Shown here in pieces: positions 19,346 through 59,321 of a stretch of 64,000 nucleotides of DNA. Location of the stretch: the NCBI GenBank assembly GCA_032718475.1, contig JAUCBJ010000200.1, positions 35,054 to 99,053 on the forward strand, given 5' to 3'. This stretch comes from Nemertoderma westbladi (taxonomy: Eukaryota > Animalia > Xenacoelomorpha). Every line of letters begins with the position of its first letter. Positions within the stretch are counted from its first letter, which is position 1. A program made the translations under genes and the position numbers. The notes under the pieces are model-generated. The model made no database searches. It saw only the letters and a list, made by a program, of their open reading frames with translations, and was not told the origin of the DNA.

Positions 19346-19632
19346 AATCATAAAATTTTGGCTTTTTTTGTTATATTTCACAGTATTGACACCGTTTTAT
19401 TACCAAAAAAACATAAATTTAATTGTTTTCATTAAAATCGTCTGCTCGGTGCAATAAAGGGTTAACAGTTTAACCTCTGAACCGAACTATTCAGCTTTCA
19501 GCTATTCAGCTATTCAGCTATTACCGGTCTGCCGGTATCCATTCTGCCATTTACTGATTTACCCAGTTCTGCAGTTACCTGGTCCTACTGTCCTAGGCTG
19601 GACCCTAGACATTATACAGACTTAACAGCTTA

Positions 19633-20256
19633 ATGGCTAATCCAACGATATACCAAACAGCAGGTTATAACAATAACAGTAGTTTAATGAAAATTGCCGT
19701 TATTTGTTCGAGCAACCAAAACCGCAGTATGGAAGCGCATAACTTTCTGGGGAAGAAGGGTTTCAACGTCCGATCCTTCGGCTCCGGGAATCAAGTTAAA
19801 TTGCCGGGCCCGGCCGCCGATAAACCGAACACCTACGAGTTCGATACCTCATACGACGACATGTATAAAGACTTAGAGGCGAAAGACAGAAATCTGTACA
19901 CACAGAACGGTCTGCTACACATGCTGGATCGAAACAGAAGGATAAAATCAGCGCCTGAAAGATTCCAAAACTGCTCCGAAGAGTTCGACCTTATATTCTG
20001 CTGCGAAGAAAGAGTTTACGACCAGGTGATAGACCATTTGAGTGAACGCGAGCAGATCACATACAAGCCCGTTCACGTTGTTAACTTGGACATTCAGGAC
20101 AATCACGAGGACGCTACTATAGGCGCCTTTATGATCTGCGATCTTTGTGCAATGCTTGCAGATACCGAGGATATGGACGATGAAATAGAAGAAATTATTC
20201 AGAGTTTTGAGGGAAAATGCGGCCGGGAAATTTTACATACTATGTTGGGTTACTGA
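19633..20256 (+). CDS. SSU72: RNA polymerase II CTD phosphatase Ssu72 (single coding exon)
   Basis: Catalytic CX5R motif VICSSNQNRSMEAH, then SFGSG..VKLPG, YTQNGLLHMLDRNRRIK, CEERVYD and IQDNHEDATIGA. AATAAA follows at about 20316. The start may instead be the downstream Met at 19687. Confidence 0.97.
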   Translation: MANPTIYQTAGYNNNSSLMKIAVICSSNQNRSMEAHNFLGKKGFNVRSFGSGNQVKLPGPAADKPNTYEFDTSYDDMYKDLEAKDRNLYTQNGLLHMLDRNRRIKSAPERFQNCSEEFDLIFCCEERVYDQVIDHLSEREQITYKPVHVVNLDIQDNHEDATIGAFMICDLCAMLADTEDMDDEIEEIIQSFEGKCGREILHTMLGY

Positions 20257-23960: not shown

Positions 23961-24993
23961 CAATGAGTGTCGATTCTACTGTTTTGAACGTTGTTACACG
24001 CCATTTAGGTGTCACTCGTGAAGTGCATTCAGCCATTCAGGTCTATGTTTAGAAAATGTGTCCTGACTGAAGGATGTTGCATACGAGTGTACGTAGGCCT
24101 ACATTGACGTATCATCTGCAAAAAGGGAAGTTGTGGATGTCAATACAATGCTGAGGTCATTTGAAATTGAGATAGTTTCACAACTCCTGGGTAGGTGAGT
24201 CAGAATTTTTGCTCTCATTTTTTAGCTACACCGACAAGCGTTTATAAAAGTTGTCTCCGCGCGATATTTACACTGTAGTTATTCTTCAAATAGTTATTTG
24301 TTGGTACTGATGGAAAGCTGGCCATGAAAGGATTAAAAATGTTACACAATCTACATTTCGGTGAAAAATAGCTGAGATATGAACGTTCAAAAGTTGCATG
24401 GTTTTGCACATTACGCGAGGCTATTATAATATATTAAATAAAAAGGCCATATTCTACAGTAGAAAATTCTGTTTATGTATGAATAGCTACATATGAGTAT
24501 GATCAAATAGACATTGCACTGTTGCGCAGCTATGTATGGGATAAACAAAATGTTCCAGAATATGACCAGTGAAAACTCACCCCTCCATTTATCAATTTTC
24601 ACTCTGTGCAAATACATCGCCGGTTTAATGTCCCTAGTGTATTCTCACTCCCCTGCTCGCTGCTCCCGGGGTATCAACCGCGGTATGGTACGACGGGGAC
24701 GGCAGGTTATAACTTCCATATAAAAGTAAATTAATAAATTCATTTTTAGCTGAGTCGCTTGCTGCAGTATTTTGCAGTTTTGAAATTCCGATCAGCCATT
24801 ACACTTTTAGAGGCAACCATCACCTGATCCCAGCCTCATCTACCGGCTTTTCTGCAGTTTACAGATTGCAAACTGCAGTAGTAGTGGCATACCGGTACAG
24901 GCACAGGCATAGGCCTATATAAAAATAATTTTCTGAAACAACTGCTGAACAGGAACTGAGGAAACAGGATTAGACAAAAAGAATACAGTTACC

Positions 24994-25917
24994 ATGACAA
25001 CTACAAGTGACCTAGACCGCCAAATAGACCAACTGCGACGCTGCGAACTAATAAAAGAGAGCGAAGTTAAATCGTTGTGCGCGAAAGTTCGTGAAATATT
25101 GATAGAGGAGAGCAACGTGCAGCGAGTTGACGCCCCGGTAACTGTTTGTGGCGACATCCACGGACAGTTCTACGATCTACGCGAACTATTCAAAGTCGGA
25201 GGCGACGTCCCGGACACCAACTATTTATTCCTCGGAGATTTCGTGGACCGAGGATTCTACAGCGTCGAGACATTCCTGTTGCTACTCGCGTTGAAAGTTC
25301 GTTACACGGATCGGATAACGCTAATCCGCGGGAACCACGAATCGCGACAGATTACCCAGGTTTACGGGTTCTATGACGAGTGTTTACGTAAGTACGGTTC
25401 AATAACGGTATGGCGGTACTGCACGGAGATCTTCGACTATCTCTCCCTCTCCGCTATTATCGACGGAAAGATTTTGTGCGTTCACGGCGGTCTCAGTCCC
25501 TCCATACAGACCCTGGACCAGATTCGGACTATAGACCGTAAGCAAGAGGTCCCCCACGACGGGCCCATGTGCGATCTCTTGTGGTCTGACCCCGAGGACA
25601 CCCAAGGCTGGGGGGTATCGCCCCGCGGTGCCGGCTATCTGTTCGGCTCCGATGTAGTACAACAATTCAACTCGACGAATAACATCGACCTCATTTGTCG
25701 CGCTCATCAGCTCGTTATGGAGGGCTACAAATGGCACTTCAATGAGACCGTTTTGACTGTTTGGTCGGCGCCGAACTACTGCTACCGGTGCGGCAATGTC
25801 GCCGCTATTCTAGAACTAGACGAACACTTACAGAGGAACTTTACGATCTTCGAAGCCGCACCCCAAGAACACCGCGGAATTCCAGCCAAAAAACCCACTC
25901 CAGATTACTTCCTCTAG
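24994..25917 (+). CDS. PPP4C: Serine/threonine-protein phosphatase 4 catalytic subunit (single coding exon)
   Basis: 307 aa with PPP motifs GDIHG, GDFVDRG, RGNHE and SAPNY. PP4-type [21 protein letters not shown]-terminus, [10 protein letters not shown] and C-terminal DYFL. Confidence 0.97.
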
Positions 25918-36944: not shown

Positions 36945-38112
36945 GGTGATATTTTGCAAATAACAATAGTTTTCTAAAGTACGTGTACCCCTTGTGGTAA
37001 AACATTCCAAATATATTGTCAATATGACCCACAATATTTTTAATGGTAGCCCCATAAAAGTGAATTCGCAGTTGCCACGTAACCATGGAAACTAGCAAAA
37101 AATAACCTTCTGTTATGTTTCATCACTTTAAATATAGTTACTATCAGTTTAAAAAGAAATCCATTTTGGGTCAATCACCTTACATGTGAATAACCCGAGA
37201 CAATTATTTCCCGAAGAGTAGGTATTTTCTTATTACCGGAAACATTTTGTAGTATGTAGAATAGCCGTCAGAATGATTTTATTTGTACTTCAGATGCACA
37301 TGAATATGTTATAGTCAACATTCATGATCACAAGCGAAGTCATTATTCTATTGTTACCATAGCAACGGGCATATTTAATTATTTATATAGTTCCAGTAAC
37401 GTTTTGATCTTTTAATTGCCTTAGAGGTTAAGAATTTAAGGATTTTTGATAATTAAAAGAATGGGGGTCTTCTATGGTTTTTATATTTAACAAAGCAATC
37501 ATTTATTGCCATGGCAACGGGAGTTTTCCTCCTAATAAGGGAATGACTGTTGTTGTGTGTCTCAAAATTTGGTAAATAATGCATTTCAGTATTTTAAACA
37601 TTACAAAAATATATTTAAATTAACTTTATTGTTCATAGCAACGAAACCTTACCACAGCAACCACAGCAATCTTATTTTTCATAAGAACATTGGGTTTTTC
37701 ACTGTATTAACATTTGCATTTTTTATTCATTTAACTGCGAATATTATATAAGAGTAGCAAGTTATCTGTAGTAATGGCATGTGTTGCATATCAATGATAT
37801 TTTTCTCATAGCAACGGCTTCTTTAGTCTAGCAACGACGTGTATTCTTTGTAACAGTGTTTACACAACAACAACATACAGTATTTATATACAGTACATAA
37901 AAGGTGTAACTGTAGATAGCAACTGTAAATTATCCTTAACAACGCAAGTTTTGTATAGCAATGACGAAACGAAAACGATAATATTCCCGTTGATATGGTA
38001 ACAATAGAATAAATGAATATCATGAATGTTGACAATATAACATATTGAAATTCCATAATATGCACAAGTAAAATGTTTCTGACGGATATTCTACATACAG
38101 TACTTCAAAATG
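36945..38112. mobile_element. Old foldback/MITE-like element with long inverted arms; the right arm is split by BEL copy B and continues at 57480-57812
   Basis: Joining 38060-38112 to 57485-57812 gives the reverse complement of about 36945-37290. Many GTTGCCATGGCAAC-like motifs are present. Confidence 0.75.
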
Positions 38113-39298
38113 TGTAAAAGCTTTTGCGGAATTAGCCGGTTATTTTCCCCGTAAAGTACTCTGTAGTTGGTTTAACAGGCATAAAAGGCCGTATCCTTGC
38201 TGTACTGGTGTTTTAGTGGACATACAAGCCATTTCTTCTGTATGTGTACTTTAGCGGACATAATTAGCAATTCTATGACGCAATGCGCTAGATCGTCTTG
38301 AAACAGTGTAGTTACTATGACGACAGCTAACAGCTGAGCTGTACACGTGTAGCTTTTCCTTGTTCTCTGGTGTTTCTTTGTTCGGTCAACCAATCAGAGC
38401 GATTCTCCTGCTTTTTGTACAGAAACCTCCGAGAAATCGCGCAATGCATTATGGGTCAATGTTTACATTTTGTCCTGAGCCCAGAAGATCGGCTTCGGAA
38501 TCTCTGTTTTTTCAGTCTTTAGCCCAACATTAGTAGGCTTAATTATAGAACGTATATCTGTTATCAAACCAAACTCATCTCACAACTCACTCACCTAATC
38601 ATATTGTCAACTACAAACAACGCATTTTTACTGCTATTTACTGTCGGTTATTCATTATATCTGTTGATGGAATATTATTATATTGGAGAATATCAATCAA
38701 TAATCAGACACCCCAATCTTCTTGATATACTGAAGGTTAGAGAGACCGGTTACATATAACGATTGCGACTTACATTAAAGTGGTTTTGAAGTGAATCTAA
38801 TGCTATTTCATAGGCACTACATGTATTGTCTGTTGTTCTCTTTATATGTGACTAAAATTAGTGAAGGACGGCAGATCAGTGTGCAGCATTGTGCAGTATT
38901 GTGTATGATTGTGACTGATAACAAAGCATCTCCTAAAGAATGCGCCATATACGTGAATCTATAGCCATCCCGTTGTGTCTAGTTTAAGTCATAATTCTGT
39001 TTACATATTTAGAGAGCCACGTCCTAAAGGAACTGTTAATATTTCCCGAAAGTGAATAATATTTGTCAGAGATTATATATATTACGATCAGTCGAATAAT
39101 ACAGTAGGCCTACACCGCAATAAGATTAAGCTTCCGAATCCAGTCTCCCGGGTATATCCAATGGGTGAATGGACGCGCATAGACTGGCTTCGGCTAATGT
39201 AGTGTATCAAATACTCGTCATAGGCTAAAGTCGATTTATTATCTAGAAGACATCCCAATTTGGCAGGTTAAACTGCTAAAGGTCTGAAAGCGCGTACA
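38113..39298 (+). repeat. 5' LTR of copy B (1186 bp)
   Basis: About 99% identical to the 3' LTR (roughly 7 substitutions and 2 indels by eye). CCAAT at about 38390 and an Inr-like TCAGTC at 38512-38517. Confidence 0.97.
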
Positions 39299-39310
39299 AT
39301 AACAGATATA
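39299..39310 (+). promoter_or_regulatory. Non-tRNA primer-binding site of copy B (ATAACAGATATA), complementary to the LTR segment 38553-38564
   Basis: Directly abuts the LTR CA, has no TGG, and is 12/12 complementary to its own LTR with a further 7-bp extension. Confidence 0.75.
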
Positions 39311-40189
39311 GCTTCTGTATTGCAGTAGGCAATAAAGCTGAAGTACCGGTCAACCGGTACCTAGTAGGCCTGACTACCTAACCACCAAGGCCTACTAGAG
39401 AAACAGGCCTGGAATCCGAGATCAAGCCAATTCTATTGAAGGCCTAATAATCCAATGTATGTGTGTGTGTGTGTCCGGAGCTCTACAGCCCCCGCATTTC
39501 TAAACCAATCTGATCGAGTAAGGTATCAAACGAAGCGGAATTGTCATACGATGCTCACCGCCCAAAAACATTTTGGTATTCTAGAACATTAATTAGCTAT
39601 TAATAGCTATTATCACTACAGACCGCATTTATAAATCGATTTGATCGATTAAGGTATCAAACGAAGCGGAATTTACCTGCAATGCACACCGCCCAAAAAA
39701 TTTAGTACTCTAGTATTCTACTACTTAGTATTCTAGAACATTATTTAGCTATTAATAGCTATTATTGTAAATTGCAATTTTTCATGTGTGTTGCCGTTAT
39801 CCCAACACCAGGGGGGAAAAACGCCGATGCTGGAGACGTGACTTTACAGACCACCGAGCCCCGGCCAGTCACCGGATATTGATTGTGGAAAAGGAATGTT
39901 TTCTGAGATGCAAGTTTGCGGTTGATAAAAAGCTGCATTAGTTGGATATACTCTTTAATGTAACTTCCTATAGTTGAAACCTGTTCAACATCATTGAAAC
40001 CTGATTAAGAATAATTTTGGGCTTCCCCAAATCAATATACACCAAATATTCACAATAATTATACACGATAATATAAATCCCTACAGTATTTTATTTAATT
40101 ACCCACTGTTCGCTCAGAATTTTAGCCTACCTAATATTCCCCAGATTTTCCCTCGGTCCTAGTCTTAGTGCCGTAGTGTTGGTGTCGGT

Positions 40190-40992
40190 CGACCCTGTTG
40201 CGTGTCCGTTCCACCCCTCACGAACCCCGAAGGGAACGATCATCGAGAACCAGCACGGCTTGGCTAAGGGTCGGTCCAGTCGGTAGACTCTGTCGCGTAT
40301 CCGTACCACCCCTCTCGAACCCCGAAGGGTTCGGTCATCGAGAACCAGTACGGCTTGGCTAGGAGTCTGTCGTGTCGGTGGACCCGTTCGCGTGTCCGTT
40401 CCACCCCTCACGAACCCCGAAGGGTTCGATCATCGAGAACCAGAACGGCTTGGCTAGGGGTCCGTCGTTTCGTCACAGAAACCCAACCACCTAGGCTTTC
40501 CGAGTCGCTTTCAGGCTCGTAGTCGCTTCGGCAGCCGAGAAACTGCTCCGAACAGTCGGTAGGCCAGTAGAGTCTAGTCGAGTCTAGTCCTTTGTCTTTC
40601 GACCCCATCGCGTGTCCGTTCCACCCCTCACGAACCCCGAAGGGAACGATCATTGAGAACCAGTACGGCTTGGCTAAGGGGTCTGTCGTCGGTTCCCGTC
40701 GCAAATCCCAGTACAAGCAGTCAGCGTTCCGAGTTCTTTTCAGTCTCGTAGTAGCTGCCGTTGACCAGAGACCGCTAAGGGCAGTTCTCGTCAAACCCGT
40801 CCTGTGGCCAGCCCTTTCGCATGTCTGTCCCACCCCTCGCGAACCCCGAAGGGATCGGTCATCGAGAACCAGTACGGCTTAGGTCAGGGGGCAGTCGTAA
40901 GTTGGCCACCCGTTCGCGTGTCCGCTCCACCCCTCACGAACCACGAAGGGAACGATCATCGAGAACCAGAACGGCTTGGCTACTAAGGGGCC
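40190..40992 (-). ncRNA. Array of six ~82-nt structured repeats (kink-turn plus UUCG hairpin), putative RNA elements of unknown class
   Basis: Units start at about 40190, 40285, 40380, 40601, 40811 and 40904. Closing and middle stems show compensatory changes, and G-U pairs form only on the minus strand. Confidence 0.55.
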
Positions 40993-41614
40993 GTCGTTTC
41001 CCGTCGCAAATCCCTGACACAAGCAGTCAGCGGTCCGAGTTCTTTTCAGTCTCGTAATGGCTGCTGTTGGCCAGGGACCGCTAAGGGCAGTCCTTGTCCT
41101 TTAGGCCTGGCGCATTACCAAATCCACCCCTACAGGCAGCAGGAAGTTGGCCAGGGCCTAATAGTACTCAGGCTAACCTGAATACTGCTTGCATTTTCCA
41201 TCCCCCCCTGGCCCTTATAACTATGAAATTATTCCCGTACCCTGTAAGTTGCCCCAAAGTTCGCCCATAAATCGCCCCCAGTTTATTGAATGTGCCCAAA
41301 ACCCATGGTCCCGCACCCAGTAGTAATATCGGAATAATCAATTTTAAATAAATACAAAAATATTCAACTCGCGTTATGGAAAGTTGAAATACCGCGAACA
41401 ATGTGTAAACCATAGGCTATTATATACTACTACTTCTACTTGGGACTACGTTAGGAGGACAAGCTGGCCGCCGCTAGCGCTATTCTAGAACATAGATAAA
41501 TAAAGGTAATAGGATTTATTAATAATATTAATATAATAATAATAAACTGGAATATAATTTTTTTGATGAAATGGATGAACCCACCGCAAATCCATATACA
41601 TATACAACATATAC

Positions 41615-42490
41615 ATATAAATCCATATACAGATCCACCACTATAGCTCAGCGTCGGCTTCACATGCATCTCATCAATAATTAGCCAGCAAACTCGAGAA
41701 CGCGGCTCTAATCTTGAGAAGTATTCTCGATAAAATCTCCTTTCCTCATCGTTACAGCATGAACTTGTTATCCTTCTCAACAGCCGTGGCGATGGAAGAG
41801 GAAGGAAAATCCTAAGCTTCATATATAGTGAGCGTGATGTTGCATACCACTCGAAAGCTAAACTCAAGTCACTTGTGGAATACAATTTCTTATTTTGTGG
41901 GGCATTTAACAGGTCCACACAACGAATCATATATCCCCGCTTTGCTACAACCTGTTCTTTCACATTGTCTGGTTGGCGAAGAATATTTATCAGTTCTTCA
42001 AGTTGAGACCAATAACGCAATTCACTAGGAAAGTTCGGATTCTTTATAGAAATAAGTTTACTATAAGCCTCATAAGGGATTGTAATGTAAATGATGCAGA
42101 GTTTGGAGTGTCACACTTAACCGGAATAAATAGAGTCTTTGGAGTTAGATAAATACTCTTGTCATGTATAGCGCCCTTTCGATTTAAACTATACAATGCT
42201 ATGGGAGATTCAGTGTTATTGCCAGATTTAGGCATAGATTAAACAAAAACCGACATCTGGTCAATATCCGGATTGCGTTTAGAAGAACTTGCGCGCGTCG
42301 TTGAGCGTGGAGGGGCTGGAGGCGTTGGGATGGAGAGCAGAGGAACATTTGGGAATACCGACTGACCGACGGCGGTTCCATTTGGGAATACCGACGGCGA
42401 ATTCTCCTCCCCGTCGTCCATACCGGTCAGTTTATCCTTCGCGTTCGCATAACCAGTTCTGCAACCGCCGACGGAACACTTCCTTCCCAT
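41615..42490 (-). pseudogene. P-type (THAP9-like) transposase remnant
   Basis: THAP start MGRKCSVGGCRTGY and a degenerate AVP-box; WYATSRSLYMKLRIFLPLPSPRLL and CWLIIDEMHVKPTLSY contain the first catalytic Asp. The remainder is deleted. Confidence 0.88.
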
Positions 42491-44849
42491 CGAGTTAACG
42501 GTCGTACAGTCGTATCAGGTTGTCAGTTGTCACTTGGGTAGTTTATTTGGGTAGACACTCGTGTATTCAGGTAAACACTCGAGCAGTCAGGTAGGAAGAG
42601 TAAACGATAACATAATTCAGTGCAGTAGGTAGTTTAAGATTTGTAAACTATAGGCCTACAGTATACCGGTATCAGAATTCTAGGCCTTCAATAATGAAGG
42701 CCTGTAGGCTGGCTGCCAGGCCTGTTTCTCTAGTAGGCCTTGCTAACCACCCGGACCGGTACCTACAGCAGTACAGGTACAGCAGTATTATTCGATTTTG
42801 ATAATTATATACCGGTAGGCCTTAATAATTAATCAGGGACTGCAGCCCTGGTTTCTTATTGAGATTTTACTTATTTCTGTCAGTTTTATTTACTTGTAGG
42901 TTAATATTGAGCAGAAGACGTGTAAGCCTGCCCAGATTGTACAGATAATTTGTAGGCTGGACTGTTGTCTGACTGTTGTTAAGTCTGAAGGGACTGTAGT
43001 GTGTGTAGAGTGTATGTCCGATAAATTACTAGTTAGGAAAGTAGGGGCTTCCAGTGCTGTGAGGTAAACCCCCTCGAAAGAATAAGTCGTACTACTCGGT
43101 TAGAACGCATACTAACTAACCATTTCGGAGTCTGCATATACTGTAGTTTGTTTAGGCTTGATAGTAGTCTGCCAGCGTTTGGTCTGTATTTTGTTTGTGT
43201 AGTTTGTACGGGTAGCGTAATATTTCTTATTCAGATAATTTGTAGGCTGGATTGTTGTCTGGCTGTTGTTAGGTCGGAAGAGATTGCGGTGTGTGTAGAG
43301 TGTATGTCCAATAAAGTGCCAGTTGGGAACGTAGGGGCTTCCAGTGCTGTGAGGTAAACCCCCTCGAAAGAATAAGTCGTACTACTCGGTTAGAACGCAT
43401 ACTAACTAACCATTTCGGAGTCTGCATATACCGTAGTTTGTTTAGGCTTGATAGTAGTCTGTCAGTTTTTGGTCTGCATTTTGTTTGAGTAGTCTGTACG
43501 CGTAGCGTAATATTTATTATTCAGAGTTTATGCGATTATTCGCAACATTCATATCCCCAAGTTTATTCCTACAGTAATTGTGCTTGTTATACATACCGTT
43601 ATAGTTAAATTAACCCCGGTACTACATCAGGGCTGCTTGGCGTAGGTAAAGACTGGTGATTTTGTGCCCCGGTCACTCCAGCAGATACCGTGGTTCTTTT
43701 GGCTGTTCAAGTATTTTAACTACTGATTATTGGTTGTATGAGTACTTGTACCTAATTTAGGGTTTAGTGTACAGTGCTTTCCGAAGGTAATTAGTGTGTA
43801 GGCAGTATATTTGTGTTGTAAAGTGGTTAATAGGCACGCTGGTTCTGGTAGACCGCGGTAATTAACTTCTAGGTAGAAACACTCCGTGATACATAACGTA
43901 GTACTTATAGCGATATGGCTATAAGTCGTCAGACGGTGGTATTTTTTCTATCTGGACAACGCAATATATTTACTACTGCTTGTTATTTTCAAATACCGTA
44001 GTACCCTGTCCGTTGTAATAACCAGATATTCTAACCCTTTGTTAGGCTGGTTTGTAGACTTCTTGTAAAATTACCCTAAAAATTCGTACGTGTAATTTTT
44101 GTGTTTATTTAGAGATTGTAATCTCACACCGAATTGTATGTAATTTGTAGTATTAAGTAACTTAGGTAAATTAGAATTATTTGTTTTAGTGTCCAACAAG
44201 TAGCACTTCACTGAGAGCGCACAGCTTCTGTGTAGTGACTCCCCCCAGAAATAATAACATTTATTTCAAATATTGACAAAAACCCATTTAACGGGTATAT
44301 ATATTATAAATCAACTCAAACGATTTATAAATAGTAGGCCTGCCATACAACAATTAGGTCTTAATATCAGTTGGACTACTGCTTAAATAACGGTAATAAA
44401 GTAAGTTAAAGTAACCAAGTAACCCCTAAAATTCAGAAATTCAATTATTCCAAAATAATTGACATACCGGTATTTACCATAGGCTTATTATATTTATTTC
44501 TATAAATTTAGGCTGAAATCATACCGGTATTCTGTAATTAATTCTAGTTCATAATTATACTTATATATACTATAAGTGTAAGCTGTATACCGGTATTCAC
44601 GATAGGCCTATTATATATTTATATATATTTGTGCTGAAATTACATACCGGTATTCTGTGACAAACCTAGTCTGTAATAATACTTATATATATACTATAAG
44701 CATACCGGTATTCTAATATATTATATATATATATCAAGTTACATTCAGTGACGATATCGGTAATTAATTACTAGGCTAACAGTGATACTGAATTACTAGA
44801 CTTGCTTAAACTGTAATATAGCAGTAGGCATTCAACTGTACAAACAAAC

Positions 44850-47800
44850 ATGTCTGATACAAAGCAAAACCTGTCAGACAGTCTCCTAGATACGACCATC
44901 TGTGACCCAGACAGGAGTGTGGAACGTGTGAGACCGAAGTTCAACTCACCTCCTACTGTAAGAAAGATCATTCCCCCAGTAGTAATATCAGACCCTAGGC
45001 TAGTCCAACATCGTAGGTCTATCATAGGCACTCGAGCTCAGGTCAAGCGGAACCAAGAAGCAGCGGAACAGCAACAACCCGCGAGCCGAGAACTTATTTC
45101 TCAGCGGCCCGACAGCTCAAGTAGTGAGGATACTGTAGAGCTGACACCCGAGCACGGAGCAAAGATGACAGATGCGGTTTATTCGGATCCCCTTCTCATC
45201 CTTCCTGCAGCCGTACTCACTAGGGTATTGATTGCGGTGGAGGAACACCAGATTGATTGGGCGAGAAGTAAGCGATCTACTAAGGATAGTTATGCGGGAT
45301 ACACAAGGGAAGAACTGAAGTCTATTGTCGAGTCGCAATGGAACTTCCCCGGATCCGGACTCCCGTTTGACTTATCGGAAGCTGCCTGGGAAGACATACA
45401 CAGGATGGGAGTAACCGAGGAAACCATCGATCCAGCTGTGTGGATGAGGTCCGCAGCCGGATACGTACAGGGATTCTTCAGCTCCATGGAGCGATTAGAA
45501 GAACAATTGTTTAGACAACCACAAGGACCTCAGGAGCAGGAAGATCTGCTTTATCAAGTTCGAGAAAGAATTCTAAGAATCAGACTAATCCTATCGGCCT
45601 TTGAGGAGGCTTCGAAAAGAAGACAAGACACGTCGTTGCAAGTTGCCGTGAAGACTTGGTTACAGCGGGTGAGTCTCCAAGTTCAAAGAACTGCCCCGTG
45701 GAAATCTCAGTTGGAGGAGCGCTCAACCCTTGGAGAATCAACAGACGCTACCTTTTCCCAGGTGGAAAGTGAAGCGACAGCAGAGAAACCGCATAAGAGG
45801 GATGCTATTGACATCTATCTGTCAGACTATCAACGTTTTGTAGGTGATGAAGAGTTGAGGAGAAGGCTAGAGGGATTTAACCCTAATAGTGAAGGAGCCA
45901 AGCTTGTGTTGGACGCAATCGATGTGGATATGAGAGCTGCGAACCAAGCTAAATTTGATGAACGCCTCCGCATCACTAGAGTCCAAGAAGAACAAGTAAA
46001 GAAAAAACGTATAGAAGACAGAAAGATAGCAGCAGCGGCAGCAGCAGAGGCAGAAGCGGAAAGAAAAGCGGCAGAAGTGGATAGAAAAGCGGCAGAGGCA
46101 GCGGCAGAGGCAAAAGCGGCAGCGGCAGAAGCAAAAGCGGCAGCTGCAGCAGTAGAAGCAGAGGCAAAAGCGGCAGCGGCAGAGGCAAAAGCGGCAGCTG
46201 CAGCAGTAGAAGCGGAAAGAAAAGTGGCAGCGGCAGAGGCAAAAGCGGCAGCGGCGGAAGCAGAAAGAAAAGCGGCAGAAGCCGAAAGAAAGCGAGCCAT
46301 GGCAGAAGCAGAACGAAGAGCATCTGAAGAGACCACCCAACTAGAGTTGGAAAATATTCAAGAGAATCAAGACTGCATAAATAAACAGATAACAGCTAGT
46401 AATATGCAGATGATGAATCGATCTACTCGCAAAAGACAGGGATACACATCATCTGAGAAAGGCGATACCACTGATACTGAAGGTGGAGGAAATAGATCTC
46501 GTCTCAGCAGACGTAGAAGAATGTCTCATCGTCAGAAATTGCCTGATTTGCCCCCAGCTGTTCGAAAACAACTAACTAGCACAGACTTAGGTAGTACAGA
46601 ACCCCTAGACCAAATTATTAAAATAGACAGACTCCCTACTATAGTAGATGAGCCTGAAATAATTAGGCCGGTTCTTGAATCCACCCCCTCGGTGATAGAG
46701 ACACCTGTACTCCCTGAACCTATCTCTAAATTCCCTCTGCACAGCACTAAGCTACCTGTGCCCAGCAGAACAGCCCATGAGACAGTTTATGTCCTGGACT
46801 CCGAGTGAAATATTAATGATTGGTCGCCCGTTGTCCCTCGTCCGCCCGCTACAACGTTGGCGGCTCCCTCTTCGGCGGTCGAGTGGGTGGATGAGAGACG
46901 GCGGGGGATGGATCTCCTGCTCGGGCAGATGCAGGAGACTGTTAAGCAGTTCAAGGGCACAGTAAGGGAAAGTAGGTTAGAGTTGCAAGAAGTGCAGCAA
47001 AGTATCGCGCTAGAACGCGATAAATTAGTAAATACAAAAAAGGGTATACCACCACCCCCTGTAACAATGTGTCAACCTGTTAGGTCTGAAGTATTTCATG
47101 CGCAAGGTGTGGAGCCTACACGCATCTATACTGCTAGCGAAGTGGAAACTCCTATAGTAAACAATATATATATATCCTATAGACAATGATATCCCATATA
47201 GACTTGATAATAATCCGAGAAATTTATATACCGATAACTCGATATTAAATAACACGATGGCCCAAGAAAGTTTTACGCGTCAAATGGCTAGAACCGAAGC
47301 CCGTCAAGCGGTAAAGGTGGGAGAGATTGTCAAGTTCAATGGAGATGAGATGAAATGGTTACCTTTTAATGAATATTACAAAGATAACATACAGAACTCT
47401 GTGCTATCTAACGGAGAGAAACTTAGATTCCTCATCGAGTGCTTGGAAGGATCTCCCAAGTTAATGGCGTTAAAGTTTATTGGACATCCCGATGGATTAA
47501 GACAAGTTTGGGATACCCTAAACATCAGGTATGGTAATAGGAATAACATAGCTAGGTATTTGTATGCAAAATTGGTAGCGCCCCGAAAGTTCATTAGCAG
47601 CGGGATAATAGAGTTTTCCGATGAGATTCAAGAGATCTGTAGACAATTAGATTGGCTAGGTAAGTCTCATGAATATCAGAGTTCTATGGTTATTGGAGCT
47701 GTGGCCTCTACCTTACCGAAGGGTGGAGTAGGTACACGCTGGGATAAGAAAGTGTTATATATGATGGAACAGCAACGACGAGACCCTACCATGGCTGATC

Positions 47801-50800
47801 TCATGTCATTCTTAGATGGAGAAGTGAAATTACAGCTCCTAAAGCAGTCCAGAGAGAAGACACCGGAAAACAAGGTAAGTGAGAAACCCATTTCTAGGAG
47901 AAAGGTAACACCAGTGTGTTATACCGACGATGGCGAAAGCCAGGCTTCTCAAGGAGAGGACAGCGGGAAAGACACTGAAAGATCTTATTATGTCAACAAA
48001 ACGCCCAAAGACGTAAGTAAATTCAGGTCTCGAACCAATGACAGGAGAGAACAGGTAAGAAAAACCCCTCCTACGTCTCCTAAGAGAATTCAGGTAAGAA
48101 AGCCCGAAGAAAGAACGAGTGTGCACAACGTTACTCAAAATAAGGTAAGTAACATCAAACCGAAATGTGCGCTGTGTGACGGGCCCCACCGTTTGAACGT
48201 GTGTGATGAATTCCTAAAGAAATCATTAACGGATAGACGGGAAGTCATGTGGGATAAGCGGTTATGTTATAATTGCCTCAGACAAGGACACCAACGGCGA
48301 ACCTGTTACTCCGACACAAGGTGTGCAAAGTGCGGTGCGAAACATCATATCTTGTTGCACACTGAATTCGAGCGAAACAGCCCGAGTCAGGTAAGTGAGT
48401 CCGAACTACATGTCCAATTCAGTGATGTGAATGACACTGACCAAAGTTCTGAGATGGAAGGATTCTATACGGACGAATTCTCCGACGAAGATGAATCCTG
48501 TTACATGATAAATACCGCAGTGTATCGAGCACTTACGTATGAAAAAGACACAGACAGCGAGATCCCCCTAACTACTTCTGACCGACAACCATCTTGGAAA
48601 GTACCAACTTCCAATGTAGGAATCCGAGAATTTCCTGTAGTACAGTTAAGGGTCCACGGACCTAAAAGGAGTTATATAGTGAACGCCCTCCTTGACTCCG
48701 GTAGCACAGGAACATTCATCGACAAAGAACTAGCCGAAGACATCTTTGCTGGACAACCCAAGTTCCGAACTAAGCTAAACATGTCAGGAATTATGCAGGT
48801 TTGGAAATCTACCGTAATAGCGGATTATTATGTAGGCGCGTTGTCCACCCCCCAGGATGAACTAGGAGAACATAGTATAAGGTCAGTAAAAATGGTGGTG
48901 ATAAAGAACTTCGCTACCAGCCAAGTGGAACCTTATAACTGGGATGAGGACGATTTCACCCAGCAGCTTGAAATACCTAGATTCAACACCGATTACCCTG
49001 GAGTGCAAATACTCATCGGTCAAAACGCGCATGAAGCGCTCGAGACATTGGAGAAACGGCCTGCTCAACCGCAACCACTACAAGCTTATGCGGGAAGAAC
49101 TAGAGTGGGTTGGTACTTTACTGGCCCTTCCCGTAGAACTCTCATGGAAAGATTACCGAAAGATCAGGTATATCAAGTAAGAGAATGGGAAGTTGATAGC
49201 AGTGAGTTAGACGATCCAACTGAGGGAACACCATACTCCTCAGATAATGACGATGTCCACCAACTCTTCGACGAGGAGAATACCATTGATCTCCTTAAGG
49301 AAAACGAGACTTGGCAAAACCAAGTGAACTTATGTCTGCTCCTTCGTCCATCAGAACGAGACGACTATAACGACGAACTGAATGACGTCATCGAACGTTA
49401 TAATGCCAAGACTCGGGATGAACACGCCGTACGATTCTTTACTCAAGAGGCTGTAGAGCCCAATTCCTACGATAAGGCCCTATTGGTAGAAGAAGAAAGA
49501 GCCAAGCAGATCCAAGAGACAACTACACGTTTTCTTAAAGATCAAGGTAGATATGAAATCGGTCTACCTTTCCGAAAGCGAGAACCAAAGTTCATAAACA
49601 ACAGACCCTTGGCGGAGAAAAGAATTGCTCAACTACATCGACGCCTTACGGCAAATACTTCAGCTAAAGAAATGTATCAAACACAGTTGAAGAAATTTAT
49701 TAGCAAGGGATATGCGGAGCGAGTACCAGAAGAAACACCTATAACAGAGAGAACGTAATATTTAACTCACCATTACGTTCCCAAACCCGGTAAACCCCAT
49801 GAGGTACGAGTAGTGTTTGACAGCTCCGCCCTCTACATGGGCCAATCCCTTATTCCGAATTGTTACCCGGACCCAACTTACTCCAATCCTTGTTGGGAAT
49901 ACTCTTAAGATTAAGACAATATTCAATCGCTTTCGCCTCAGATATAGAAGGCATGTTCTTACAGGTCAAGGCGCTGGATAGGGATCGAGATAGCCTACGA
50001 TTTCTGTGGTGGCCTGAAGGAGACCTCAACCAGAAACCGGTGGAGTACTGGATGACCATCCAGGCTTTTGGGATAATCTCAAGCCCTTCAAACGCCTGTT
50101 CAGTGGTGCGCACCACTGCGGATGACAACCGAGAAGCCTTCTCTAAAGAGGTGATTGACAACATCAAACGGGATATATACATGGACGACAATCTAAAGTC
50201 CCTTCCATCAGTCGAAGAAGCCATTGATGTCGCTAAAGGAACGGTAGAGTGCTTAAAAAGAGGTGGATTTCGATTAACTAAATTCACCAGCAACTCCCGT
50301 GAGTTTCTGGAGTCGATCCCTGTAGAAGATCGAGGAGCGAAAGACCTAGATCTAATCAAAGATGATCTTCCAGAAACCAAGACACTTGGTTTGAAATGGG
50401 ACACAGAGAGAGATATCCTGTTTTTCCAGCTAAAACAGCGAGATAATCCAGTTCGGACAAAACGGATTTGTTTAAGTATCCTGAGCACTTATTTCGATCC
50501 ATTGGGATTTATTAGCCCAGTTATATTGATTGCTCGGAGTTTAGTACAACAAATGTGGCTTGAAAACCACTCATGGGACGATCCACTTAAGGGAGAATTA
50601 TTAAAGAAGTGGATGAAATGGGAAGATTCTCTACCAGCCATCGAGAACTTTATAATTTCCCGTTCATATTTTGGTCATGTTCTCCCTACGTATTCCTATC
50701 AACTCCATGTGTTTGGAGACGCCAGTGATATGGGAATAGGTATAGTAGCCTACCTAAGAGTGGAAACTCCGGATGGAATCAAAGTCGCCTTGGTTACATC

Positions 50801-53069
50801 TAAGGCATTGATAAACAACAAGTTGAAAGTTCCTCGAGCGGAGTTAAAAGCGGCGCTATACGCTACAGCCATCGGCCGGAATGTAACGGAACAGATCGAT
50901 TATCCGTTGGAGAAAACTGTCTATTGCACCGACGCTTTACTCGTGTTGGAGTATATAACCAATGAAGTCTGTCAGTTCAGCGTCTTCGTTACCAACAGAG
51001 TAGCCATTATACTTAGTCGCACAACGATGGATCAATGGAGACATTGCCCCGGAACGATTAATCCAGCAGACATCGCCTCCAGGGGAGCAACTCCACAAGA
51101 ACTGGTAGATACTCCAGACTGGTTAGGTGGACCCGACTTCCTCTACAAAGAAGAAAAAGAATGGCCTCCTCATCTTACTACAGCAGAGATTAGACAGGCC
51201 AAGGGAGCGGAGAAAGTCAAACCTAAAACTCGGGCGAGTAAATCGAAGTTATTTAAACCTATGGTAGATCTGTCTGTACTACATACTTCCGGAGACGACG
51301 CTTTGGATCAGAAACCCACAGCCGCAAATAAGTCTGTAGTGGAAATATGTGAGAAGGATTGGAAATCTGGAATACCAGACGTCTCGCAAGGACTCTCACC
51401 TCTCCTGCAGAGGGCGATACATCACTACAGTTCCTGGAATCGGCTCTGTAAAGCCGTTACATATTTAAGACGATGTTTTCATCATCACTACTCCGGGACG
51501 AAGACCAATAGTGATACCTCTCCACTGACATCTGTGCAGGTCCATGTTGTTAAAGATCTTCCCAAATATAAGATATCCGACAGGTTTCTGAAGGAGAAGA
51601 TCAGTTATCAGGAGCATGAAGAAACCAACAAGCAGATACTGAGACTCCTGCAATGCTATGAGGATTCCGATAAGTATTTCCTGTTGTTGAGAAATCCACA
51701 GATGCGCTTAAGGGATCGTTTCTCTAGCACAATGATAGATGGGTTGATACGTGTTGGAGGAAGATTAACGAATGCTCCATTATCCTTTGACACTAAGTTT
51801 CCCATGCTCATTAGAAATCTTGAGATACAAGTCAAGATGATTGTAGATGTTCACAGCAAACTTTATCATGCTGGTAGAGAACGAGTTCTTAGCGAAATTC
51901 GAACTCGCTATTATTTTTATAAACCCCGTAGAGCTCTGAACCAAGTTCTTAGGAACTGCATACCCTGTAGGAAAGCATTCAGTGGCATAAGGCCTTTAAC
52001 ACAGCGAGAGGCAGAATTACCTAGGGAACGAGTAAGCTTCTATGAACCACCCTTTACTAATACCGGTGTAGATTTATTTGGCCCTATTGAAGTATATCGT
52101 GCTAGGACTATAGTCAAGAGATGGTGTGTCATCTTTGTTTGTATGACTTGTAGAGCTATCCATCTCGATATGGTGAACGATTTATCTACCAACAGCTTCC
52201 TATTAAGCTTACGACGACAGATCGCTCGCTTTGGAACCAGTAACACGATGAGATCTGATAAGGGAACAAACTTCATTGGTGCCAACAATGAAATCAAAGC
52301 TTACGTCAAAGATTGGAACCAAAGACAGGTGGATGATCAGCTAAGGGTAACAGCGTCTAGCTGGACCTTTAACGCCGCCGACGCCCCTTGGTGGGGAGGA
52401 AGTTGGGAGAGATTAATTAGAAGTGTGAAGACTGCATTTCACTTTATAGTGCCGTGCCGCGCGTATCTCACCGACGAACTTTTGCGGACGTTAATGGAGG
52501 AAATCGCCGCCTATCTCAACGAGAGACCGCTTATGCCAGTCTCATTGAGTCCCGATTCCCTGGAAGCGCTAACACCCGCGCACTTCCTACTGAAGAAACC
52601 TGTAGCCATGCTCCCACAATCGGAAATCACAGACGGAGACGAATACTGCCGGCAAACTTGGCAACTTATGCAGTTGTTATCCCATCGTTTCGCTGACCAT
52701 TTCGAAAAACATTATCTGCCCACGCTACAACTTCGAACTAAGTGGTTTGCGCAGCAAGAAAACGTCAGCGCTGGAGACATGGTCCTTATTGTGGATGCAG
52801 ATCTTCCACGTAAGAGGTGACAGACAGGTCGTATCATCGAGACTCACATCTCGGATGACGGTTTGGTGCGATCGGTAGAACTCGTCGTCATGCGACGTAA
52901 CTTCAAGAAACCGGGAATTGTCTTCAAGACACAGCAGCTCAATCGCCCAGTTGGTCGTTTATGTTTACTGGAAAGAGACAGAGAACTCTCCGGAAACTAT
53001 GGAAGACAAGATACCCTTCCCACGACCACCTCCCTAATCCAACAAACATCTAGGGACTCCCCAGCTTAG
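44850..53069 (+). pseudogene. BEL gag-pol polyprotein of copy B, disrupted
   Basis: Zinc knuckles, ALLDSGS, DIEGMFLQV, YMDD, LHVFGDAS, NPADIASRG, H..LYHAG/CIPC, GVDLFGP, SDKGTNF and PWWGGSWERL. Stops at 46806, 49756 and 52818; frameshifts near 47170 and 49850. Confidence 0.95.
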
Positions 53070-54702
53070 CAGCGTCTGGAGTGGGTGTGTGACCATATTA
53101 TTTTATATTCTTATTATTTTATATTTATGTATGTATTATTATGTAATTTTATTATAATCGTTTTCTTTAATTTTATTTAGTAGAATGTTATTTTAGCGAT
53201 TATTTAGTAGATTAGTGCAATGTATATTAGTGTTTATTATTTAATTACTTATATATTATATATTTAGTGCGACGGCGAGAAATAATTATTTTTCTCTTTC
53301 CTTACTGTCCGTATTATATTACAAATACGTAACTACAGTAAGATGAAATATCTGTACTTATTAAAGTACAATAAAGCTCCTACTATATTCAAGTATTATT
53401 GGTAAAGTAGAGTATTAGGAATGCAAAATTCAGATCCTCGTGTCTCGGCTAAACCAAGCTCTGGGTAGACCTTGGAAACGACTTGCATCTTCTCACTGAC
53501 ATTGCTTCGTGCGATATTGCTCTCATACCGTATATTAAATAATACATATAGTAGCGTGATGTCCCTTTAACAGTAGCGTACAACGCAAATAAATCTGTTA
53601 AACCCTTTGACCATCTGCAATTCTAGTCGATTAAGATATCGCGGCACCCACCGATATACTTGAAAGACAAAATTCTAGAATCAGTGGTTAACGTCCCCAG
53701 ACAAGTTCTGGAATAAACTGGTGCCCATCATAAATATTAATTATTAATATTTACAAAATCTGTCAAATTTTAGATCCTTTAAAATTCTAGTCTATTAAGA
53801 TATCGTAGCACTTACCGATATTCTTAAAAAGACCAATTTCCTAGAATCAAGGATCCCAGTCCCCAGACATGTTCTGGAATAAAATTGTGTCTATTTAATA
53901 TTAAATAATAAAATTTACGGGAATAATTTTAAATTCATATTTTAATGAATTTGATAAATTGTTATTTTTATACAATTTATAACATTCCCAAAATTCCATT
54001 AATTAATAGATCATGGGAGCGGAGATTCACCCTATTAAGTATATTAGTGTGCGAGAATCTCCAAAATATAGTCAATAGCCGACAAAATTCATAAAATCAT
54101 GTATAAAGAGGAATATTGACAATTAAAGAATTACTATTAAATAGCATCCCAGATCTGTATGCATGAGAATTACCCTAATTCTACCGCTAGCTTTCCATAA
54201 TGTCACCATGGCAACAACCACGCTAGAATTAGAAGTGAGTTAAAGGAACAGGAAAGGCTTGCCCCATTGAATGGCATAAGGAATAAATAGTACACTGCTG
54301 GTATCCCAGGATACCCAATAATAACGTGGCATTCTGGAAGGCACTGACTAACGTACAAATGGCCCGAATGTGTACAGTTTGTGACAGTTGTGTTGAATTT
54401 GTGCGTTTATAGGTGAATGTTACTGCTAAAGTGTGTTTACAGTAGCGAGTCGCAATTGTGAAAGTAGCCCTAACTCTCCAGAAAGAACCTGAAGTACATC
54501 TAAGCCTTTGGGACGGACAGTGGAGTGACTTGTGCCGGTTATCGTTGTCGTTGTGTAGCTACATCGTTGGCGAAAGCACAGCGACGACGGTACATCGGCG
54601 CTGAGGATCTTGCACTGTCCGGGGGCAAAGAGGGGTAGGCAGCGACGCCCGCTAGCCTAAAATATAAACTCATTATAATATTGATAAACTCATATAGCAG
54701 AT

Positions 54703-56223
54703 ATGACTGAGTTGATAGAAGATGATCTTGGTATCAGGGAGCGATATACTCTACCTTTACAAGTGTTTATCGATAGCTTGATACGCGGCGACGCTGGTCC
54801 AACTACTACGGAGGATGATGGTCGTTATATCGAACCGCCAATGTCCCAGGAGCAACTTACGCGTGAATTGGATTATAGAAAGTTCACCGCTCGCTATACG
54901 CATCGTAATGGTACGTATATGGACTTCTTAACTACCGGCCATCCTATCGATTTACACGATACGGACGATGTAGACACCGAAAGGGAAATAGTTTTATTTA
55001 AATATCCTACCCAGCGGAGGCGGAACGATAAACCGAGAATGGAACACGAGAATTCTATTCGAAACAGACTCGAAGGAGAAGACATTGAAGAGTCGGATAA
55101 ACGCAGCGACTTCAATGATTATCTGGAATTCCTGAGAGAAACATATCTCAATATTGCCAATCAACAAAATCCAGAAACTCGATATCCTCAAGGTATACAT
55201 CATGATCCTATGATAGAACTCAAACGACTCTATTTCACTATGATGTATCTTACCGCCGATCGACCACTACTTGTCATCCCAGATAGCTTCGAACAGATGG
55301 AGGAATATTGTAAAACCGAATAAATATCACCCGCGTTTCCCCTATAAGACGTGCGTCTTTGGTATTATTGCAATGAATGCCCAAGACCCAACCAACAAAC
55401 GGAAAGACATAAACATCCGAAGAGACGTTGCTTTGGACGCGGTTACTCGCTGTATTTACGGGAGTTTCGAGCGAAACTTGTTCGACGTATCACCTACGCT
55501 CGCTCGATTCAAACAATCCTTAAATAAACCTATGATCAGAGTTCCAGAATACTCGGTCAGACCTCCTCATTCTCTAGTTGGACCTCGGACTCTTGATCCT
55601 AATAGTATCACGGATCCTCCCGAACTGTCCTCACTGTTCAAAGATCTAGTGTTACTCGAGCGGTTGGTCGGTGGCACTCCGGTTGTGGGCTCCCTAAATA
55701 TTCGCCCATCTTGCCTGGTCGGATTGGGACGCGGACATCTAATATCGCCATTCAACCGTGTCATCGTCCCTGTTTAACCCGATACAACCTGTCACCGAGG
55801 CGGAGGAAAGAGTTATACGAAACGCGTTGGACACTATTCGTCAAAAGAGCGGAAAATGAACCTACAATTGTTTAAAGAAACGTAAATTGCAGTAGCAAGT
55901 CCAAGCGGTAAACGAATTAACTTTATCTCAGTTCGATCAGGAAATTCAGAATCTCTAAGAAAATATCGAACTTGGACGACCCTATTCTCTGCAAGAGTTT
56001 TGGACGAACGCATCCAACGATAAGCGGAGGAAAATCAGCTCGAGGAGAAGCATATCGAAATAGACGAGACATCGACCGTAACCCTAAACCTTCAGATGCA
56101 ATTGTATTGCACCCTTTACCCAAGGGTTATAGCCCTCCTAGTAAAGTGGCTCGCCCCTAAGAGAAAAGGACTCTTGCTAGCCTCAAAAAACTACGTAAAC
56201 GCCGTCCGCGCAAGAAAAACTAA
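54703..56223 (+). pseudogene. Accessory ORF3 inside BEL copy B (about 500 codons, disrupted), unknown function
   Basis: 206-aa and 168-aa overlapping ORFs are followed by stop-interrupted frames ending in KRTLASLKKLRKRRPRKKN-stop, just upstream of the PPT. A CAG acceptor-like site lies immediately before the ATG. Confidence 0.6.
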
Positions 56224-56293
56224 CTGTTTAGAGTATTTTTATATTTTAGAAACTGTGATTTTTTATATTTTATAGACTAAAATCCCATTTTCT

Positions 56294-56301
56294 GGGAGCG
56301 G
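56294..56301 (+). promoter_or_regulatory. Polypurine tract (GGGAGCGG) with upstream T-run
   Basis: Directly abuts the TG of the 3' LTR. Confidence 0.7.
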
Positions 56302-57479
56302 TGTAAAAGCTTTTGCGGAATTAGCCGGTTATTTTCCCCGTAAAGTACTCTGTAGTTGGTTTAACAGGCATAAAAGGCCGTATCCTTACTGTACTGGTGT
56401 TTTAGTGGACATACAAAGCCATTTCTTCTGTATGTGTACTTTAGCGGACATAATTAGCAATTCTATGACGCAATGCGCTTGAAACAGTGTAGTTACTATG
56501 ACGACAGCTAACAGCTGAGCTGTACACGTGTAGCTTTTCCTTGTTCTCTGGTGTTTCTTTGTTCGGTCAACCAATCAGAGCGATTCTCCTGCTTTTTGTA
56601 CAGAAACCTCCGAGAAATCGCGCAATGCATTATGGGTCAATGTTTACATTTTGTCCTGAGCCCAGAAGATCGGCTTCGGAATCTCTGTTTTTTCAGTCTT
56701 TAGCCCAACATTAGTAGGCTTAATTATAGAACGTATATCTGTTATCAAACCAAACTCATCTCACAACTCACTCACCTAATCATATTGTCAACTACAAACA
56801 CCGCATTTTTACTGCTATTTACTGTCGGTTATTCATTATATCTGTTGATGGAATATTATTATATTGGAGAATATCAATCAATAATCAGACACCCCAATCT
56901 TCTTGATATACTGAAGGTTAGAGAGACCGGTTACATATAACGATTGCGACTTACATTAAAGTGGTTTTGAAGTGAATCTAATGCTATTTCATAGGCACTA
57001 CATGTATTGTCTGTTGTTCTCTTTATATGTGACTAAAATTAGTGAAGGTCGGCAGATCAGTGTGCAGCATTGTGCAGTATTGTGTATGATTGTGACTGAT
57101 AACAAAGCATCTCCTAAAGAATGCGCCATATACGTGAATCTATAGCCATCCCGTTGTGTCTAGTTTAAGTCATAACTCTGTTTACATATTTAGGGCGCCA
57201 CGTCCTAAAGGAACTGTTAATATTTCCCGAAAGTGAATAATATTTGTCAGAGATTATATATATTACGATCAGTCGAATAATACAGTAGGCCTACACCGCA
57301 ATAAGATTAAGCTTCCGAATCCAGTCTCCCGGGTATATCCAACGGGTGAATGGACGCGCATAGACTGGCTTCGGCTAATGTAGTGTATCAAATACTCGTC
57401 ATAGGCTAAAGTCGATTTATTATCTAGAAGACATCCCAATTTGGCAGGTTAAACTGCTAAAGGTCTGAAAGCGCGTACA
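56302..57479 (+). repeat. 3' LTR of copy B (1178 bp)
   Basis: Direct repeat of 38113-39298, followed by TSD AAATG. Confidence 0.97.
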
Positions 57480-59321
57480 AAATGTTTCCGGTTACTATGG
57501 TACAGTAATAAGAAGAGACCTCCTGCGTCGGTAAATAATTGTCTTGGGTTATGAACACGTAAGGTAATTGGCCCTAAGTGGATATCATTTTAAACTGATA
57601 GTAACTATATGTAAAGTGATGAAACATTACAGAAGGTTATTTTTTGCTAGTTTCAATGGTTACAAGGCAACTGCCAAAGATAATCCATTTTTATGGGGCC
57701 ACCATTAAAAATATAGAGGGTCTTATTGACATTTAGAATGTTTCATGATTTTAGCACAAGGGAAGCACATATTTGGCAATGATTTAGAATACTACTGATA
57801 TTTGCACAAATTCATCTTCTCAATTCAATTCAATTCAATTCTCGATTTATCTTAAAACCGTTGGATGCCAGCCATTACACAAATTTGCCTTCCCCATCAC
57901 TGTAATATTTAAAATATATAAACAGCAAAGGCTGTAAAAGAAGGCATAGGCCCACAGTACTTAGATATCCACATTTATGGGGCCTTCGCGCAGCACGAGA
58001 ATCGGTTAACCAGAGAGCGGTTAAACAGAGAAAACTGTGTTCCCGAGAACTTGTTCTTTTTGCTCTACTACTGTACTTCGTTAGCTTGCCGACTTGTTCT
58101 ATTTAACCAATGCTCATAAGACATTCCTATCAAATTACAAATGAATCTGCTGGTTGGTTCTATAATTACAGCTGCTTCTACGTTTCTGACAATTCGCCCC
58201 CTACTGTAGCGGCAGTCGACAGAGGAACTATAGAAGTCTGTCTGTGAGTATAATTTCTGAATACCACTTCTACCAAATTATAGATGAATCTGACGACGAG
58301 AGAGAAGTCGTTCAAATATAATTTATACATAAATAAGGATGTTAACTGGTATTAAGATTAATAATGACATGATGATTTTCATCCCCATGACGTAACGGCC
58401 AATATGATCGACAATTCGGCCAATCCCCTCCTTCACACTTCCTTAGAAAACATTAATTCATTTGAATTCTTATGAAAATTATGATATTTATTAAAATGTA
58501 AAATGCAGCGGTGTAGATATTTATACGTACAGAAGGCACTACAGTATAACATAATGCTTACCGGTAGGCAACCCAAACATATGAAATATTAATCTATTAT
58601 AATAAGGTAAAATAAATGATACAGAAATATTTAATTAATTTGTCAAACTTTGTATTTAAATTGTAATTCTGAAAAACTATGTTTTGTATATTTGGTTAAT
58701 TAAACTTGAGCAGAACTGTTAATGCTAAATTTGGAATCTAATTTGAACTGCCGACGAATATGTTTTAATTAGAGAACATTGGAAAATGTCGCAAAAGTAG
58801 AAATACGTTACATTATTAACGCAACCAGTATTTTATACCTGGTGGAGAAGTCCCAGCTGGATTAGTTCAAATTAGGCAGTGAATCCTATTATTATACTCC
58901 AGTAATTACTATATACACTTATTCTTCTTCAACGTCCAATTACTTCCAACTTGAATTACACAGCCGCTAACAATAAAATTGTCGAAGGCGAATGACGTAA
59001 AAATATTGGCGTTTGCACCATATAAATACTGTAACATTAAATTAATGTTAAACCAATAGGCTTAATCGAGTTTTAAAGAGAATGTAATCAAAAAATATTA
59101 GCACTTCAAAACTTAAACTACATGCGTAATTATGCTTAATTATTTAAGACTGTAAACAAAATCCCACACGCTACCGAACTATCTGGTAAAATTTACCATA
59201 AAGAAGAAATTTTAATTGTTACTTTTTTTTATATTTTATTTTATTATTTAGCCCAAAATATCATTATTATTGCGATATTTCAACCAGTAGCACCTGACTA
59301 CGGCTTACGAACCTAAAACAA

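Follow-up and report, generated by a model that had tools for sequence, protein, structure and literature searches.

Priming of minus-strand synthesis by the element's own RNA has been described for Tf1/sushi retrotransposons and predicted for Tcn1 and for the TAR lineage of copia, in the sections covered of four sources (PMC6317226, PMC4600332, PMC6934838, PMC5445492). According to the parts covered of two studies, Tf1 needs three duplexes, one between primer and PBS and one between each PBS-adjacent segment and the LTR downstream of the primer (PMC10085805), and its RNase H cut falls between bases 11 and 12 (PMC7175516). TAR-type self-priming is called from at least 10 bp that are complementary to the LTR and start 0–5 bp after it (PMC6317226, in the part covered). 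For the Belpaoviridae, the ICTV gives an 18-nt PBS complementary to tRNA-Arg or tRNA-Gly, a genome of 4.2–10 kb, and a replication that is tRNA-primed and poorly understood (PMC8742986). The sequence-only reading that preceded this work knew of no account of self-priming in BEL/Pao, and the literature searched holds none. Repbase, GyDB, the Anopheles BEL survey, or the original papers of Levin and Poulter may contain an earlier remark. The terms “PBS” and “tRNA” are absent from PMC3118150 and PMC554778, and the parts covered of PMC8220671, PMC3601003, and PMC13524379 contain no report of BEL/Pao self-priming. Tf1-like self-priming in BEL/Pao would be a mechanism known elsewhere and, within the literature searched, new for this superfamily.

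The window (the whole 64,000-nucleotide stretch of DNA analyzed here) contains a full-length LTR retrotransposon, element B (38113–57479, + strand). Its 5′ LTR (38113–39298, 1186 nt, TG...CA) and 3′ LTR (56302–57479) share 98.6% identity, with 7 substitutions in 1176 columns, and the element is framed by a 5-bp TSD (left 38108–38112, right 57480–57484); TG...CA LTRs with a TSD are as expected for BEL/Pao. A short purine-rich tract (56294–56301) precedes the 3′ LTR. The gag-pol region (44817–52820) consists of interrupted frames (44817–46808, 46809–47189, 47161–49758, and 49821–52820) with Pfam matches to DUF1759, Peptidase_A17, an integrase zinc finger (Integrase_H2C2), and DUF5641, and follows the gag-PR-RT-RH-IN order with BEL-type domains. 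The RT carries a YMDD motif, and four acidic residues are present where the alignment places RNase H, a region that we take to be spanned by Peptidase_A17. The closest of 380 protein matches, at ∼35–37% full-length identity, contain the same Pfam families; their named sources are fish, cnidarians, echinoderms, crustaceans, and molluscs. On the basis of the Pfam domains and these matches, the window element is by structure and domains a member of BEL/Pao, although it does not fit the tRNA site of the ICTV description. B measures ∼16 kb without its insert. Its gag has an N-terminal extension of ∼560–660 amino acids with an Ala/Lys/Glu repeat, and the two longest frames of the 3.5-kb region after pol have no Pfam match. 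The leader of B includes ∼3.4 kb missing from the second copy (39360–42777), within which lie a 95-nt repeat family (40182–40992) and, on the minus strand, a frame that weakly matches a P-type transposase (E 0.037).

The second copy, copy A, has minus-strand orientation and extends past the window start. Its 5′ LTR (11751–12969, 1219 nt) differs from that of B by 22%; most of pol is deleted, and a gag-protease frame of 1419 amino acids with DUF1759 is retained (1317–5576). A LINE with endonuclease and RT (946-amino acid frame) sits inside copy A at 6337–10218, and a 49-bp tandem array (12970–13743) adjoins the outer end of the LTR. The window also holds an Ssu72 phosphatase (19609–20256, +, E 5e-89) and a serine/threonine phosphatase (Metallophos; 24949–25917, +, E 1e-48), each a single uninterrupted frame; these are intronless genes or retrocopies. 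The BEL/Pao family of B is young and very abundant, with 9271 contigs of run X1 on the LTR.

As the sequence-only reading had claimed, the letters after both LTRs contain no TGG-type tRNA PBS, and an 18-nt tRNA-complementary PBS of the ICTV type is not found there. In B, the 12 nt directly after the LTR (39299–39310, offset 0) are the exact reverse complement of 38553–38564 (LTR 441–452), which places the predicted 3′ end of a self-primer at 38564. After two mismatches, the pairing continues for 7 bp, one of them G-U, between 38544–38550 and 39313–39319; this extension shares 2 nt with one of the flanking arms described below. In A, the 16 nt after the LTR (11750–11735, offset 0) are 16/16 complementary to 12532–12517 (LTR 438–453), followed by a 1-nt bulge and 6 bp. 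The complementarity ends at the LTR edge, since starts 1–3 nt inside the LTR yield just 4–6 nt, and at other sites. Both copies therefore show the perfect LTR segment/PBS complement at the LTR edge known from Tf1 and also conform to the TAR-lineage rule (≥10 bp to the LTR, 0–5 bp behind it). The segment indeed lies ∼440 nt into the LTR, as reported earlier; the CCAAT box said to adjoin it is located 163–174 nt upstream of its 3′ end.

Comparison of the 12-bp core between A and B reveals three pairs that differ on both sides, none that differs on one side, and none that is broken. These three compensatory changes are firm; two more that had been proposed in the 6–7-bp extension are not counted, because the homology of the A and B extensions depends on the alignment. 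Cross-pairing between the copies is weak (−10.2 and −8.7 kcal/mol versus −20.9 and −27.8 for own pairing). A and B are the only two copies phased for PBS and anti-PBS; a third anti-PBS variant occurs in one X5 contig, the contigs of four runs being too short to link its PBS. It is highly improbable that the complementarity arose by chance or as a one-off inverted duplication at the DNA level without function. The LTR is AT-rich, and 36 of 8953 sampled window positions (0.4%) reach a complementarity of at least 12 nt, but both copies pair in an identical register, and their changes match. When the LTR was dinucleotide-shuffled, the observed length was attained at offsets 0–5 in 7/5000 cases for B and 0/5000 for A, and the control flank after the 3′ LTR of B offers at most 6 nt at offsets 0–7. 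Chance is further disfavored by G-U pairs kept in the flanking helices and by distant relatives whose partner segments form only after splicing.

The segments on both sides of the PBS also find partners in the LTR. In arm 1 of B, 39108–39122 pairs with the leader at 39318–39330 (6+6 bp, two double changes), and in arm 2, 39173–39185 pairs with the U5 end at 39281–39295 (6+6 bp, one double and three one-sided changes). The counterparts in A (− strand) are 11928–11942 with 11730–11718 and 11865–11877 with 11768–11754. Within the LTR, leader +13..+36 pairs best at position 996 in B and at 1028 in A, and the U5 end at ∼1055 and ∼1087; in either case the sites are homologous, with nested order, and for the leader arm 0/30 shuffles were as good in each copy. 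All 24 arm pairs are kept in A and B, with three double changes. Together with an 8-bp U5 hairpin (39259–39280; kept in both copies, two one-sided G-U changes), 32/32 pairs are standard in both copies, with three double and five G-U-keeping changes in a pairwise alignment, against 31–38% paired in slid-alignment controls. The structure was derived from the same two sequences that are used to score it, and the covariation shuffle control (59/500) is not significant, this being the limit reachable with two rows. Both PBS-flanking segments are thus predicted, in two copies, to pair with the LTR downstream of the putative primer, as in the three-duplex pretzel of Tf1; the pretzel is a pseudoknot, which the folding program is unable to score. 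The G-U pairs of the arms point to selection on RNA structure, because plus-strand copying of a primer could not create them.

Two further helices involve the leader. An upstream helix (38510–38521 with 39333–39343) comprises 11 bp in A and B, with four one-sided G-U-keeping changes and no double change; it is the weaker candidate, and in A it has a competitor in a local leader hairpin. A leader hairpin at 39343–39360, made of two palindromic hexamers and kept in A, is a candidate dimerization or packaging signal. Palindromic hexamers just past the PBS region number two in B (39343–39360) and five in A (11582–11702).

Priming by a host RNA brings the PBS back to a single sequence. The 3/12 PBS differences between A and B, each matched in the LTR, argue against the reading that the paired segments serve a structural or regulatory purpose (packaging, dimerization, or a translation switch) and a host tRNA half or other small RNA is the true primer, and so do the precise stop of the pairing at the LTR edge and the absence of any Rfam match in either LTR-leader region. 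Rfam returned no family for these regions, with two chance matches each (E 0.77–8), and on this ground we rejected the idea that the element had captured a known RNA family. No tRNA genes were found in the window. We consider a host primer quite unlikely, although competing alternative folds in the leader would suit it and half-tRNA priming is known in copia lineages (PMC6317226, in the part covered).

For the 5′ end of the RNA, an Inr-like motif at 38512–38517 (+) is a candidate transcription start. Located 52–54 nt upstream of the primer end, it is the only such motif common to both LTRs, judged by the consensus. The motif also resembles a splice acceptor, a role rejected because neither LTR has a canonical donor upstream. 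With a start at LTR 398, the core helix forms with P=0.97 in A and B alike; moving the start to around LTR 340 leaves the value at 0.97 in B and lowers it to 0.17–0.27 in A. The core helix is absent from the minimum-energy fold of A, whose ensemble favors the local leader hairpin (+18..+40) over the extension. A self-primer of ∼50 nt, starting upstream at the shared motif near 38514, is plausible given the position of this motif and the helix probability of 0.97 for such a start. Among the relatives, a TATA box is present in 2/9 LTRs checked, with implied primers of ∼105–118 nt. A donor-like splice site is found downstream of the anti-PBS in both LTRs (38736 in B, ∼12311 in A), with no matching acceptor identified; this conserved site could give an RNA spliced across the long leader.

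The primer could also be element RNA without being the 5′ end folded in cis. Transcription might start past 38564, or a separate short LTR transcript might exist (also from solo LTRs), so that a 3′-end or trans fragment anneals to the PBS. In A, a TATA-like heptamer at LTR 431 stands right before the segment and implies a start at ∼460, beyond the anti-PBS, but its canonical form is missing at that point in B. The anti-PBS segment is the same in the 3′ LTR, the family is very abundant, and the splice-made partners of the relatives could come in trans, all of which would suit such a fragment. Against it, both copies possess the Inr-like motif and the 11-bp helix upstream, and no part of the family is less shared than the stretch past 38564, where the start would fall. 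The depth of B-like sequence in DNA-run contigs is maintained over the anti-PBS and collapses right past 38564 (in X1, 328k at 38550–55, 102k at 38562–67, and 1.5k at 38574–79), contig depth being a rough measure. In four runs, family copies have either a different sequence in place of the segment 38565–38637, just after the predicted cut, or a hypervariable one. On balance, we regard a primer supplied in trans or from the 3′ end as unlikely.

The window family probably primes minus-strand synthesis with its own RNA in the manner of Tf1, which is the best reading of the data. This interpretation, put forward in the sequence-only reading, is supported by the covarying Tf1-type pretzel in A and B and by self-complementary sites in distant BEL relatives; the class, the missing TGG site, the three predicted helices, and their covariation are what the letters themselves provide. 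Transcription would start upstream of the anti-PBS, with the Inr-like motif near 38514 as the most likely site, and the capped primer would measure ∼50 nt, compared with 11 in Tf1. The anti-PBS segment ending at 38564 would anneal to the PBS directly after the LTR, while the two flanking duplexes would keep the PBS open in a Tf1-type pretzel. By analogy with Tf1, the RNA would be cut at 38564/38565, probably by the RNase H domain of the element, and from the 3′ end created by the cut RT would proceed into U5. In every cycle, the PBS would then be rewritten when plus-strand synthesis copies the primer, and because of this rewriting, PBS and LTR segment would drift together. As the frames of B are interrupted and pol of A is deleted, neither copy demonstrates cutting by its own enzyme.

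We compared the window element with 69 BEL loci from metagenome contigs, taken from the best 80 of 592 confirmed stretches in 14/64 collection parts. An exact 26-nt LTR stretch has no match in metagenome or viral contigs, and a protein alignment search found no relative in viral contigs. Seven relatives retain both LTR ends: three pair only after splicing, one pairs contiguously, two have TGG sites (L007 and L068), and one (L023) has neither TGG nor a self-complement. In L042, L043, and L056, the PBS pairs over 12, 15, and 11 nt only once a GT-AG intron of the LTR is removed (1, 0, and 0 of 300 shuffles, respectively). Such partners, created by splicing alone, point to RNA. In L061, an 11-nt contiguous pairing is present in the 3′ LTR (L061:6918–6928), and the 5′ LTR has an acceptor at that place (L061:145). 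Either the family of L061 has LTRs both with and without the intron, or two copies were joined into a chimera during assembly; the contig shows how the contiguous type could arise through intron loss.

A stricter scan started from 47 loci with enough upstream DNA, two of them without a candidate end, and covered 45. At a threshold of at least 11 nt with at most 2/40 shuffles, at which 2–3 passes are possible by chance, 8/45 are splice-type (L012, L034, L043, L053, L054, L056, L057, and L062, with L056 and L057 forming one family). Contiguous 11-nt pairing occurs in three (L061, L035, and the doubtful L005), TGG sites in four; the remaining 30, L042 included, are untyped, many of them lacking the LTR part. 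The nearest relatives (L002, L003, and L020) were recovered without LTRs. The self-complementary relatives have no TGG, an offset of 0–4, and LTRs of ∼370–640 nt where these are defined. The TGG site of L058 shows an 11-nt match to the 3′ end of tRNA-Tyr, and the other two TGG-site motifs have no match, in the parts covered of the PMC13524379 supplements. For the window copies, a splice-made primer was rejected: the best spliced matches (11 nt in B, 9 nt in A), with poor splice signals, are shorter than the contiguous 12 and 16 nt, and among 22 of the 47 loose contig ends none begins with a donor. Pretzel arms are undetectable in 9/9 splice-type or contiguous relatives (3–30 of 30 shuffles as good).

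In quick, unrooted RT-RH trees of 54 and 23 rows, the window element sits on a long branch, and all ten self-complementary rows fall on a side that excludes it with 99% support. Its placement inside the group of L061, L056, L034, and L014 is rejected (p-AU 0.006, for a group picked after seeing the tree). A split that separates the window element and the self-complementary rows from the TGG rows receives a support of 75 in the unrooted tree and is neither shown nor rejected. Self-priming within BEL/Pao would have one or two origins, and the trees fit either. It is possible, if somewhat short of probable, that BEL/Pao left tRNA priming more than once, with the giant window lineage independently reaching the full Tf1 pretzel and a long capped self-primer, and a broad aquatic BEL clade making its primer by splicing an LTR intron. 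If so, self-priming would be recurrent in all three LTR superfamilies, and the cutting of RNA duplexes by RNase H would be a latent shared ability.

A self-primed BEL/Pao lineage with a covarying pretzel would bring the mechanism to a third LTR superfamily and, if true, would mean that a complex RNA fold was reached convergently. BEL elements without a recognizable PBS would be accounted for, and annotators would gain a calling rule; the predicted cut site is specified to the single base. Such elements would presumably escape host control exerted via tRNA supply or tRNA fragments.

Like Tf1/Tf2 of Schizosaccharomyces pombe, Tj1, and Tosmo1-3 of the Tf1/sushi group, the window element has no tRNA site and a PBS right after the 5′ LTR that is complementary to its own LTR (PMC10085805, PMC7175516, and PMC4600332, in the parts covered). 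As in Tf1, a central duplex is predicted to be joined by two duplexes between PBS-adjacent segments and the LTR downstream of the primer (PMC10085805, in the part covered). In contrast to the Tf1/sushi elements, which are Ty3/gypsy chromoviruses, it carries BEL/Pao domains and no chromodomain match in the frames scanned, and membership of that group was rejected on these grounds. The primer segment differs from that of Tf1 in lying 440 nt into a 1.2-kb LTR, ∼735–765 nt before the PBS; transcription likely starts ∼50 nt upstream and not at the first paired base, and the pairing comprises 12–16 bp plus an extension instead of 11. LTRs, gag-pol order, Pfam domains, and the 5-bp TSD agree with the Belpaoviridae, whereas the lack of a TGG site and the size of ∼16 kb without the insert depart from the ICTV description. 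The TAR lineage of Ty1/copia (Houba, Osr-1) and the Tcn1 clade resemble the window element in that self-priming was called from sequence by the same criterion (PMC6317226, in the part covered), but they are plant and fungal and belong to other superfamilies. Finally, the BEL relatives from aquatic animals (L012, L034, L042, L043, L053, L054, L056/L057, and L062, together with L061 and L035) share with the window element a PBS without TGG that is complementary to the RNA of their own LTR, whereas they mostly require splicing of an LTR intron and have short LTRs and no detectable pretzel.
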